From a virus, in IMG/VR virus record IMGVR_UViG_3300028376_000003, positions 77,528-141,527 of that record: a stretch of 64,000 nucleotides of DNA; one strand, 5' to 3'. The notes under the pieces are model-generated. The model saw only the letters and a list, made by a program, of their open reading frames with translations. It made no database searches and was not told where the DNA came from. Made by a program: the position numbers and the translations under genes. How positions within the stretch are numbered: position 1 is the first letter of the stretch; each line of letters opens with the position of its first letter. This document shows positions 11,952 to 31,769 of the stretch, one piece after another.

Positions 11952-12024
11952 CGCGGGGTAGAGCAGTAGGTAGCTCGCTAGGCTCATAACCTAGAGGTCG
12001 TTGGTTCGAGTCCAACTCCCGCTA
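11952..12024 (+). tRNA. tRNA-Met(CAT), initiator-like
   Basis: CGCGGGG start with unpaired 1:72; anticodon arm ctagg-CTCATAA-cctag; GGTTCGAGTCC. Confidence 0.9.
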
Positions 12025-12044
12025 CAAATAAATAAATAAATAAA

Positions 12045-12128
12045 ATGAATACTTTTACTAACATAGAATATTATTATGAAGAATCTGAACGAAAACGCTC
12101 GGCTAGTCTTTTGATGTCTATAATGTAA
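12045..12128 (+). CDS. Leader peptide 1 (MNTFTNIEYYYEESERKRSASLLMSIM)
   Basis: GAA TAT TAT TAT GAA GAA TCT GAA run upstream of a terminator and tRNA-Tyr/tRNA-Glu. Confidence 0.8.
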   Translation: MNTFTNIEYYYEESERKRSASLLMSIM

Positions 12129-12879: not shown

Positions 12880-12954
12880 ATGAGAACAATTAATAACATA
12901 GCAATAATAGCGATAGGCAAAGGGAAAACTCATTGGCTGGGAATTGTTATGTAA
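12880..12954 (+). CDS. Leader peptide 2 (MRTINNIAIIAIGKGKTHWLGIVM)
   Basis: ATA GCA ATA ATA GCG ATA GGC AAA GGG run; contains TGGCTGGG complementary to the terminator 5' arm. Confidence 0.85.
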   Translation: MRTINNIAIIAIGKGKTHWLGIVM

Positions 12955-21756: not shown

Positions 21757-22304
21757 TTATTCTCAAATGGACTTATCTTAGAATCTATCAAAGACATCAA
21801 TTCATTGTGTGTTTGTGATAGATTCCTTGATACTAAACCATCTAAAATAAATCTAGTTTCTGTCACATACTTGCTGACAAATTTATCACTACCTTGTTCT
21901 AAATCTGAGCAATTGTGTAATCTATCAGCTAACTTTATAACAAGAGCATAACTAGTCATATTTAGCATTTTATCTAATAAATACTCTGATTTACCTACCT
22001 TCTCTATTTTGTTATTATCAGATGTAAGTTCTTCTACTATACTACTGACCATTTTTCCAAACTCTTCTTCTATATTACTAATAGTAACATCACAATCTTC
22101 AACAGTGTCGTGAAGTAATGCCGCAATACAAATTAGCTCCTTATTTTTACTCACCTTGACCTCCCTAACTATTTTGCTTACTGCAATTGGGTGCCATGCA
22201 TATTCTTTGCCAGAAAATTTTCTAAACTGTCCATCGTGTGCCTCTATCATAAATAATAGAGCCTTTCTTAGCTTTGTTTCTTTTTTAGTTTTCATAGTTG
22301 TCAT
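21753..22304 (-). CDS. HD-domain (p)ppGpp hydrolase-like protein (SpoT-HD/Mesh1 family)
   Basis: AHDGQFRK..EY..HP, AALLHDTVED, IKLADRLHN. Confidence 0.85.
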   Translation of the reverse strand: MTTMKTKKETKLRKALLFMIEAHDGQFRKFSGKEYAWHPIAVSKIVREVKVSKNKELICIAALLHDTVEDCDVTISNIEEEFGKMVSSIVEELTSDNNKIEKVGKSEYLLDKMLNMTSYALVIKLADRLHNCSDLEQGSDKFVSKYVTETRFILDGLVSRNLSQTHNELMSLIDSKISPFENN

Positions 22305-22391
22305 ATATATTAAACAAATATAACCTTTTTATTTGATATATACAACAGGGGAGATATATACTTTTATATATATAATAAAATATAAAAAATC

Positions 22392-24238: not shown

Positions 24239-24267
24239 AAATAAATTTAAATCTTTTTAAAAAACAC

Positions 24268-24380
24268 TTGTGAGAAACAAATATTAGTTATATATTTGCA
24301 CAGAACCTAAAATAATTTAAACTTTTAGTAAAAAAAAGAATATAAATAACCAAAGGAAGAAATAAAATTTAATATATAAT
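24268..24380 (+). promoter_or_regulatory. Stacked host-type, putative middle and putative late promoters
   Basis: TATATTTG (~24291), AACTT-N16-TATAA (~24320-24345), TTAATATATA (~24369); homologous block at 28999-29090. Confidence 0.6.
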
Positions 24381-24384
24381 AGTG

Positions 24385-24504
24385 ATGAAAAATTTAAACC
24401 TAAATACAAATAGAAACTTAACGCTCAATGTGGTGAATATTATGTTATGTAATAGACCATCTAGGGGTTCTAGTGTATTTAATAAATTTCATCTTATGAC
24501 ATAG
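24385..24504 (+). CDS. Leader peptide 3 (MKNLNLNTNRNLTLNVVNIMLCNRPSRGSSVFNKFHLMT)
   Basis: Codons 3-24 use only N,L,T,R,V,I,M,C; contains TCTAGGGGTT antiterminator segment. Confidence 0.85.
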   Translation: MKNLNLNTNRNLTLNVVNIMLCNRPSRGSSVFNKFHLMT

Positions 24505-24526
24505 TGAAATAAAAAATACAAATAAC

Positions 24527-24563
24527 TAAAACCCCTAGAAATGAAAATTCTAGGGGTTTTTTT
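24527..24563 (+). terminator. Intrinsic terminator / attenuator 3
   Basis: AAAACCCCTAGAA-loop-TTCTAGGGGTTTT plus T tract. Confidence 0.9.
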
Positions 24564-24570
24564 GTTTTAT

Positions 24571-24655
24571 GCTAGTGTGGTGGAATGGTAGACACGAGGG
24601 ATTCAAAATCCTTTAATCAGAAATGATTATATGAGTTCAAATCTCATCATTAGTA
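24571..24655 (+). tRNA. tRNA-Leu(CAA)
   Basis: aggga-TTCAAAA-tcctt; long variable arm. Confidence 0.85.
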
Positions 24656-24667
24656 CATATATTACAA

Positions 24668-24741
24668 TCCTCGTTAGCTCAGTGGTCAGAAGCTCTCGTC
24701 TGTTAAACGAAAGGTCGGTGGTTCGAATCCACCACGAGGAG
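24668..24741 (+). tRNA. tRNA-Asn(GTT)
   Basis: tcgt-CTGTTAA-acga. Confidence 0.9.
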
Positions 24742-24749
24742 CAAATAAT

Positions 24750-24831
24750 CGGCATATACCAGCCCAAGCTGATACCTTGGAGAACTGTAGTTGGTAAGTT
24801 GAAAACGTAGGTTCGAGTCCTACTGTGCCGA
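24750..24831 (+). tRNA. Non-canonical tRNA-Ile(GAT)
   Basis: Acceptor cggcata/tgtgccg, anticodon arm ccaag-CTGATAC-cttgg, normal T arm; no D arm at the usual position. Confidence 0.7.
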
Positions 24832-24845
24832 CTTTTATGACACTT

Positions 24846-24930
24846 GTCGGAGTGGTGGAATGGCAGACACGCTGGGTTTAAGCTCCAGTGGGCAGTGATG
24901 TCCGTGAGGGTTCGAGTCCCTTCTCCGATA
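24846..24930 (+). tRNA. tRNA-Leu(TAA)
   Basis: ctggg-TTTAAGC-tccag; long variable arm. Confidence 0.85.
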
Positions 24931-24939
24931 CGAATAAAT

Positions 24940-25029
24940 GCCAGTGTGGTGAAATTGGATGAAACACGCTAGTCTTAGGAACTAGTACCCAAGAGGTAAA
25001 CATTGTCGGTTCGAGTCCGACCACTGGTA
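24940..25029 (+). tRNA. tRNA-Leu(TAG)
   Basis: ctagt-CTTAGGA-actag. Confidence 0.88.
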
Positions 25030-25039
25030 CAAAATAAAT

Positions 25040-25120
25040 GCCTTAGTAGTCCCGATTGTCTTCTAAACAATTAAGGGTAATTGGAAGCTGAAAATATAGG
25101 TTCGAGTCCTATCTAGGGTA
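25040..25120 (+). tRNA. Non-canonical tRNA-Arg(TCT)
   Basis: Acceptor gccttag/ctagggt, attgt-CTTCTAA-acaat, normal T arm; no D arm at the usual position. Confidence 0.7.
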
Positions 25121-25129
25121 CAAATAAAA

Positions 25130-25203
25130 AGTTCTGTAATTCAGGGGTTCAGAATGCTTCCCTTACAAGGAAGAAGTCGTTGGTTCGAATCCAACCAGAA
25201 CTA
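25130..25203 (+). tRNA. tRNA-Val(TAC)
   Basis: cttcc-CTTACAA-ggaag. Confidence 0.9.
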
Positions 25204-25209
25204 CAAAAT

Positions 25210-25281
25210 GTACCTATGACCGAGTGATTTAGGTAGGTGGCTGCAACCCATCGTACGGGGGTTTGAATCCCTCTAGGTACT
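25210..25281 (+). tRNA. tRNA-Cys(GCA)
   Basis: ggtgg-CTGCAAC-ccatc; U discriminator. Confidence 0.85.
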
Positions 25282-25288
25282 CTAATAT

Positions 25289-25361
25289 GCTGACATAGCT
25301 CAATTGGTAGAGCATTTGATTTGTAATCAAAAGGTTGTGGGTTCGAAGCCCTCTGTCAGCT
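25289..25361 (+). tRNA. tRNA-Thr(TGT)
   Basis: tttga-TTTGTAA-tcaaa. Confidence 0.9.
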
Positions 25362-25371
25362 CTGAAAAAAT

Positions 25372-25461
25372 GCACTAGTGGCGAAGTGGATGAAACGCAT
25401 CAGACTTAAAATCTGATACCCTTTGAGGTGAACAACGTGGGTTCAAATCCCACCTGGTGTA
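25372..25461 (+). tRNA. tRNA-Leu(TAA)
   Basis: tcaga-CTTAAAA-tctga; long variable arm. Confidence 0.88.
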
Positions 25462-25465
25462 CTAA

Positions 25466-25551
25466 ATCGCTATGAACAGATGTGGTAATTGTGCTTGGCT
25501 CATATCCAAGTTAGAGAAATCTTATTGTTGGTTCAAGTCCAACTAGCGGTA
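25466..25551 (+). tRNA. tRNA-Met(CAT) (elongator or Ile2) with long variable arm
   Basis: cttgg-CTCATAT-ccaag. Confidence 0.75.
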
Positions 25552-25552
25552 C

Positions 25553-25593
25553 AAAAAAAGAGGGGATATAATTAATTATATCCCCTCTTTTTT
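25553..25593. terminator. Bidirectional terminator closing tRNA array 3
   Basis: AAAAAAGAGGGGATATA / TATATCCCCTCTTTTTT inverted repeat between convergent units. Confidence 0.85.
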
Positions 25594-26037: not shown

Positions 26038-26055
26038 ACTCTTATATATTAATTT

Positions 26056-28933: not shown

Positions 28934-29093
28934 AACTCTATATATTAAAAAAGATTATTTTAATTTAAAAAAAACCTTGTATAAACCATTTATTTATATT
29001 ATATTTGCATAGAAATAATATAATTCTAAACTTTTATAAAAAAAAGTCTATAAATAACCATAGAGAGAAATAAAAGTTAATATATAAAACATA

Positions 29094-29198
29094 ATGAAAA
29101 ATTTAAACTTAAACATAGTAGTTAACCCTCAACCCCAAGTTGATATCGATCAGGATTCTGATACGAAAGGTGCTAACTATGTTTTAAATTTAAGTTGA
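29094..29198 (+). CDS. Leader peptide 4 (MKNLNLNIVVNPQPQVDIDQDSDTKGANYVLNLS)
   Basis: CCT CAA CCC CAA GTT GAT ATC GAT CAG GAT TCT GAT run upstream of Asp/Gln/Pro tRNAs. Confidence 0.85.
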   Translation: MKNLNLNIVVNPQPQVDIDQDSDTKGANYVLNLS

Positions 29199-29216: not shown

Positions 29217-29256
29217 AAAAACTCGGTTAGTCTTTTAGATTAACCGAGTTTTTTTT
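29217..29256 (+). terminator. Intrinsic terminator / attenuator 4
   Basis: AAAACTCGGTTAGTC-loop-GATTAACCGAGTTTT plus T tract. Confidence 0.9.
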
Positions 29257-31731: not shown

Positions 31732-31769
31732 ATAAGGTATATATTAAATATAATTACTACATTTGCAAA

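Follow-up and report, generated by a model that had tools for sequence, protein, structure and literature searches.

Why would a phage place a strong transcription terminator directly in front of its own tRNA genes? In a huge phage, a block of eleven tRNA or tRNA-like genes lies behind a small open reading frame (ORF) that is written almost only in the codons read by those tRNAs, and the intervening terminator ends 4 nt before the first tRNA. A strong terminator between a promoter and its genes makes sense only if it is conditional. The sequence evidence supports the interpretation that the locus is a ribosome-mediated, leader-peptide transcription attenuator, which probably enables production of the tRNAs when their cognate codons are decoded slowly. 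No description of such control of tRNA genes was found in full-text literature searches, and term searches inside the Lak megaphage and huge-phage papers found no mention of attenuators.

Organization of the locus

The analysed stretch of DNA (the window) comprises the last 64 kb of a 141.5-kb virus contig from IMG/VR (IMGVR_UViG_3300028376_000003). The contig has a G+C content of 29% and an estimated completeness of about 20%, which implies a genome of several hundred kilobases. The nearest DNA match is LR745206.1, an uncultured phage of 634,780 bp. Phages of more than 634 kb were assigned to the Mahaphage clade with predicted Bacteroidetes hosts (PMC7162821).

The first-pass annotation described a leader ORF in which codons 3–24 encode only N, L, T, R, V, I, M, and C, the eight specificities of an 11-tRNA array, followed by an exact copy of the terminator 3' arm. 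These observations are confirmed. The motif TCTAGGGGTT occurs exactly three times in the window: in the leader ORF (the competitor), in the 3' arm of the terminator, and, as its complement, in the 5' arm. Nine tRNAs of the array were identified by ARAGORN. Two 100-nt gaps between them hold tRNA-like genes, which complete the count of eleven genes and eight specificities; however, these two are structurally aberrant and may not function. The gene with the GAU anticodon loop scores 27.3 bits against the Rfam tRNA model, just under the 29-bit cut-off, whereas that with the UCU anticodon scores 39.1 bits.

The gene-start motif upstream of the leader ATG occurs in 20 copies, against 2.9 expected, and lies 4–24 nt upstream of the ATG of ORFs of 110–1054 amino acids. 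The promoter assignment is weak in the window, where only a −7 box resembling the probable Bacteroidota consensus is present. The strict two-box pattern (TTTG, 18–22 nt, TAnnTTTG) does not match at any leader in the window and is not enriched, although relatives have a clear TTTG about 20 nt upstream of the −7 box.

Table 1 Features of the attenuator, the tRNA operon, and the sister units in the window. Positions are those of the window.
Feature	Position	Strand	Description
Promoter-like −7 box	24291..24298	+	TATATTTG, TAnnTTTG type; weak assignment
Gene-start motif	24369..24378	+	TTAATATATA, 6 nt upstream of the leader ATG; also precedes many real genes, the other leaders, and the tRNA-Met at 11952
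Leader ORF	24385..24504	+	39 codons plus a TAG stop (24502-24504), with TGA next in frame
Regulatory run	24391..24456	+	22 codons (codons 3–24), using only N, L, T, R, V, I, M, and C
Small hairpin	24427..24446	+	Inside the regulatory codons; nearly invariant in sequence
Competitor	24460..24469	+	Antiterminator 5' strand; pairs with 24530-24539
Possible inner extension of the antiterminator	24471..24480	+	Pairs with 24514-24528
3' partner of the possible inner extension	24514..24528	+	
Terminator 5' arm	24528..24540	+	Shared with the antiterminator; the 13-bp terminator stem spans 24528-24560
Terminator 3' arm and T-run	24548..24566	+	Copy of the competitor at 24549-24558
tRNA-Leu(CAA) and tRNA-Asn(GUU)	24571..24742	+	24571-24656 and 24668-24742
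Atypical tRNA-like gene, GAU (Ile)	24750..24831	+	D-arm reduced to about 4 nt; 23-nt insert in the variable region
tRNA-Leu(UAA) and tRNA-Leu(UAG)	24846..25030	+	24846-24931 and 24940-25030
Atypical tRNA-like gene, UCU (Arg)	25040..25120	+	Built like the gene at 24750; compensatory change in the anticodon stem in LR745206.1
tRNA-Val(UAC), Cys(GCA), Thr(UGU), Leu(UAA), and Met(CAU)	25130..25552	+	Leu(UAA) of 91 nt; Met of 87 nt with a long variable arm
Closing terminator	25554..25593	+	Strong, bidirectional; closes the tRNA operon
Sister unit, Tyr and Glu codons	12045-12180		Leader ORF 12045-12128; array tRNA-Tyr, tRNA-Glu
Sister unit, ATA, Ala, and Gly codons	12880-13005		Leader ORF 12880-12954; array Ile(UAU), Gly, Gly, Ala
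Sister unit, Pro, Gln, and Asp codons	29094-29253		Leader ORF 29094-29198; array Asp, Gln, Pro tRNAs

Codon content of the leader

The composition of the leader is not a product of chance. The eight amino acids make up 43% of the phage proteome; nevertheless, the 22-codon run is the longest of its kind in the 283,050 six-frame codons of the contig, the next longest being 17. Under strict wobble rules, 21 of the 22 codons are readable by tRNAs of the array, against 29.7% of phage codon usage. The corresponding binomial probability is about 1e-10; however, the codon window was chosen post hoc. The exception is CTC, which is not read by any tRNA of this array, and the first ~7 codons are shared with the Asp/Gln/Pro leader at 29094, where they do not match the array.

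Sixteen distinct homologues of the leader were aligned, and the ORF is conserved in them. The amino-terminal part varies in sequence but not in composition: 349 of 351 regulatory residues, and 158 of 160 residues in the sequence-variable part, belong to the eight-residue set. By contrast, only 58 of 205 residues of the tails do. Insertions and deletions in the regulatory part are 3 or 9 nt long and therefore preserve the reading frame. Conserved composition with a variable sequence is the signature of regulatory codons and argues that the ORF is translated. However, the core of the regulatory run is nearly invariant even at third codon positions, which indicates that an RNA-level constraint acts as well and could explain part of the conservation. 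The core also uses codons that are rare in this phage (GTG twice, ACG, and CTC) and can form the small hairpin identified by RNAalifold. This may be a pause signal or a way to sensitize decoding; the hairpin shows no informative covariation.

Sister units and relatives

All four tRNA arrays in the window share the layout of a small ORF, then a hairpin with a T-run, then a tRNA 7–14 nt later, and each leader matches its own array. The matched assignment of leaders to arrays is the best of the 24 possible permutations. Perfect-stem terminators are rare, occurring at only about nine loci of the 141.5-kb contig, and three of them, plus a fourth with one mismatch, are in sense orientation just before the four tRNA arrays. 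The promoter and first ~150 nt of the unit studied here are 81% identical to those of the unit at 29094. The units therefore look like modules that differ in a codon cassette and a terminator, and the present one has the widest input set.

Pattern scans and tRNA searches identified relatives in LR745206.1, in three IMG/VR contigs of 152–436 kb, in a fourth IMG/VR contig of 95 kb, and in many metagenome contigs. Twenty-two leader-terminator units were measured, four in the window and 18 in LR745206.1 and the three larger IMG/VR contigs. They fall into six leader families, each preceding the matching tRNAs: N/L/T/V/I/M/C/R, F/H/W/K, R/S, Y/E, I/G/A, and D/Q/P. The matched assignment is the best of 720 permutations, and the distance from the stop codon to the terminator is 17–34 nt in all 22 units. 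Gain or loss of a tRNA together with its codon could not be shown between phages; ARAGORN misses the atypical tRNAs and several arrays are interrupted or cut.

Alternative RNA folds

The duplex of the competitor with the terminator 5' arm has a predicted energy of −17.3 kcal/mol (z = −6.3 against shuffled sequences), equal to that of the terminator hairpin at −17.9 kcal/mol. When the transcript is folded only up to the 5' arm, the competitor pairs with that arm, and the helix can extend inward to reach −25.2 kcal/mol. This inner extension is only weakly supported in relatives, where it was not individually significant in an incomplete test (p = 0.07–0.4). With the whole region folded, the terminator state (−28.1 kcal/mol) and the antiterminator-forced state (−27.2 kcal/mol) are nearly isoenergetic.

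The terminator exists in three sequence states among the homologues, represented by the window, the main group, and the two homologues L049 and L065, and the in-ORF competitor changes together with both terminator arms each time. In the alignment, the antiterminator helix is 93% paired, against 55% when it is slid by one column, and has two pairs with double-sided changes. The terminator is 94% paired, with four such pairs. The other leaders in the window also fold so that a segment in the 3' part of the ORF pairs with the terminator 5' arm; this is clear for the Ile/Gly/Ala unit and weaker for the Tyr/Glu and Asp/Gln/Pro units. No clear 1:2 anti-antiterminator that would sequester the competitor was found by folding and by the alignment consensus.

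Proposed mechanism of attenuation

The order of regulatory codons, competitor, stop codon, and terminator is the classical one, so a stall should give read-through. It is proposed that transcription starts upstream of the leader and the leader is translated. If the ribosome is slowed at any of the roughly 20 early codons read by the tRNAs of the array, the competitor stays free and pairs with the terminator 5' arm as it emerges, the terminator cannot form, and RNA polymerase continues into the tRNA genes. If decoding is fast, the ribosome covers the competitor and then sits in the loop between the two antiterminator strands, the terminator hairpin forms, and transcription stops before the first tRNA. 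The unit would therefore act as a negative feedback on decoding capacity for eight amino acids, opening when host tRNAs are scarce, lost, or damaged. This explanation is considered probable, with translation of the ORF, ribosome stalling, the polarity of the switch, and the signal sensed being inferred from sequence in the absence of expression, 3'-end, or ribosome data.

The first-pass annotation interpreted the leader as a multi-input OR gate that senses eight amino acids. This reading is supported, with refinements. A stalled ribosome reports the supply of charged cognate tRNA and not amino acids as such, and because the output is tRNA, a feedback on tRNA supply is the more natural logic. 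Furthermore, the codons may not be equal inputs. Assuming that a ribosome covers about 15 nt downstream of its P site, stalls up to about the Met or Cys codon leave the competitor free, whereas a ribosome stalled at the last two or three regulatory codons would probably cover it. Finally, the ORF continues 11 codons past the competitor, which places the stop codon inside the antiterminator loop, and a ribosome waiting at the stop codon does not physically cover the competitor. Termination under fast decoding may instead rely on the ribosome occupying the competitor while the terminator is being made, or on steric exclusion of the long-range helix.

It is about as likely as not that huge Mahaphage-type phages of Bacteroidota run their own tRNA homeostasis. 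All elongator tRNA genes would be split into five or six operons, each gated by a leader peptide that measures decoding speed for exactly the codons of that operon. The phage would then supplement any tRNA set that the host lacks, shuts off, or destroys, for example by anticodon nucleases, and stop when the supply suffices. The initiator-like tRNA-Met, which elongating ribosomes cannot sense, would be the only tRNA left outside this control.

Alternative explanations

The main alternative is that the RNA switch is the same but responds to amino-acid starvation, without an autoregulatory loop through the tRNAs. A stalled ribosome cannot distinguish a missing tRNA from an uncharged one, classical leader peptides report charging, and the anatomy of the locus fits both readings. 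However, making more tRNA does not help when the amino acid is missing. The match holds at the level of codon and anticodon, including ATA codons paired with a UAU-anticodon Ile tRNA in the sister unit, which fits a sensor tuned to these particular tRNAs. Every elongator tRNA array has its own leader. This alternative is considered unlikely.

It is very unlikely that the hairpin is a constitutive leaky terminator or an RNA-processing or stabilizing structure next to an unrelated or untranslated ORF. There is no direct evidence of translation or conditional termination, and tRNA precursors often carry structured 5' leaders. However, this reading does not explain the matching of six leader families to their arrays, the restriction of substitutions to the eight-residue set, the frame-preserving indels, or the covariation of a distant in-ORF segment with the terminator 5' arm.

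A reversed polarity, in which efficient translation promotes read-through, for example by the ribosome melting the terminator, is similarly improbable. Polarity is inferred from geometry only, and ribosomes stalled at the last regulatory codons would cover the competitor. However, the stop codon lies 23 nt before the terminator stem, beyond the roughly 12–15 nt that a ribosome is expected to cover downstream, and the competitor lies just downstream of the regulatory codons, as in classical starvation-induced read-through. Direct sensing of tRNA without translation, as in a T-box riboswitch, is the least likely, because although the triplets match the anticodons of the downstream tRNAs, they are all in one frame between a conserved start and a stop, indels preserve the frame, about 22 triplets of eight specificities do not fit a single specifier loop, and no T-box was matched in Rfam at the gathering score or at E up to 10 in 24240-24575.

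Comparison with known attenuators

The locus resembles the multivalent attenuators of enterobacterial amino-acid operons, such as the ilvGMEDA (Ile/Leu/Val) and thr (Thr/Ile) leaders, in the short leader rich in codons for several amino acids, the terminator just before the regulated genes, and the mutually exclusive antiterminator with its 5' strand just downstream of the regulatory codons. It differs from them in that the regulated genes are tRNAs, eight specificities are sensed instead of two or three, the element is encoded by a phage, and the product would feed back on the sensor directly through decoding speed. It shares with the E. coli trp attenuator the competition of segment 2 with the 3:4 terminator; however, in trp the position of the stop codon lets the ribosome mask segment 2. 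The pheST operon with its pheM leader and T-box riboswitches are related in logic, as both appear to control aminoacyl-tRNA synthetase genes according to the state of the cognate tRNA through premature termination; however, pheM controls a protein gene and senses one amino acid, and T-boxes bind uncharged tRNA directly.

Leader-peptide attenuation appears to have been described only for amino-acid, synthetase, and some resistance genes, whereas the operon studied here holds only tRNA genes between the attenuator and the closing terminator. If the proposed mechanism is correct, it would be the first cis-acting feedback proposed for tRNA supply, and would explain how phages carrying dozens of tRNAs avoid making them needlessly. 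It would suggest that phages can sense depletion or cleavage of host tRNAs during infection, and would provide a simple, portable, codon-programmable sensor. It would also make testable why tRNA genes in these phages are grouped by amino acid as they are.

No Rfam family, including the His, Leu, Thr, Trp, and Phe leaders, matches the leader at its gathering threshold. The best hit is His_leader at 26.4 bits, against a gathering score of 49, and it lies over the terminator only. The metagenome scan also returned chance hits, which were excluded: six contigs carry a 19-codon ORF upstream of a ParA-like gene, with no tRNA and no matching terminator, and others lie inside long ORFs. An alternative genetic code is not required, because code 11 already gives dense ORFs in this DNA, and recoding of the TAG stop of the leader would add one codon only before the in-frame TGA.

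Atypical tRNA genes

The tRNA-like genes in the array belong to a family in which the D-arm is cut to 3–4 nucleotides, and a conserved insert of about 20 nucleotides, resembling a D-loop, is positioned in the variable region. The anticodons are GAU, UCU, and, in relatives, UAU. The anticodon stem shows a compensatory change between the window and LR745206.1. Furthermore, some tRNAs carry unexpected long variable arms, including Met(CAU) and Leu(UAA) in the window and Asn(GUU) in LR745206.1. Three other tRNA matches are 124–128 nucleotides long and carry inserts of about 50 nucleotides, which recall the enigmatic tRNA introns reported for Lak phages (PMC6784885).

Protein genes are inserted inside or right after tRNA arrays. 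In L012, one of the relatives, the insertion separates the first Asn tRNA from the rest of the N/L/T array, and the upstream text shows Cys-x2-Cys and His motifs typical of HNH homing endonucleases. The insertion in L022 has a helix-turn-helix-like N-terminus.

Gene-start motif and initiator-like tRNA

The motif TTAATATATA occurs 20 times in the window, whereas 2.9 occurrences are expected. It is located 4–24 nucleotides upstream of the ATG of many real genes, of three leaders, and of the tRNA-Met at 11952, and is probably a phage promoter or a translation-start signal. This tRNA-Met(CAU) has a C1/U72 mismatch, which is initiator-like, and it is the only tRNA in the window that follows a promoter motif directly, with no leader and no terminator. 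The same holds in relatives (L008, L012, L013, and L016). This arrangement fits the idea that an initiator cannot be sensed by the stalling of elongation.

Similarity among attenuator modules

The promoter and 5′ leader modules of two attenuators in the window are 81% identical, which points to duplication followed by exchange of the codon cassette and terminator. In addition, the 3′ part of the Tyr/Glu leader holds a near-copy of the 5′ arm of the Asp/Gln/Pro terminator, which may be a relic of module shuffling.

Positions of the atypical tRNA genes, motif sites, insertions, and similar segments in the window and other sequences.
Sequence	Position	Strand	Feature
Window	24750-24831		tRNA-like gene with reduced D-arm
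Window	25040-25120		tRNA-like gene with reduced D-arm
L004	1900-1978		tRNA-like gene with reduced D-arm
L008/L012	just after the Ile/Gly/Ala terminators		tRNA-like gene with reduced D-arm
Window	25466-25552		Met(CAU) tRNA, 87 nt
Window	25372-25462		Leu(UAA) tRNA, 91 nt
L004	2232-2318		Asn(GUU) tRNA of LR745206.1, 87 nt
G001	C1:74781-74908		tRNA match with insert
G003	C1:7409-7532		tRNA match with insert
W01	C1:365524-365647		tRNA match with insert
L012 (G001)	between the first Asn tRNA and the rest of the N/L/T array	-	Inserted protein gene
L022	after 1186		Inserted protein gene
Window	22304-22313	-	Gene-start motif (example)
Window	26043-26052	-	Gene-start motif (example)
Window	28939-28948	-	Gene-start motif (example)
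Window	31738-31747	-	Gene-start motif (example)
Window	11952-12025		tRNA-Met(CAU), initiator-like
Window	24256-24404 and 28964-29113		Promoter and 5′ leader modules of two attenuators
Window	12100-12115 and 29222-29237		Near-copy in the 3′ part of the Tyr/Glu leader and 5′ arm of the Asp/Gln/Pro terminator
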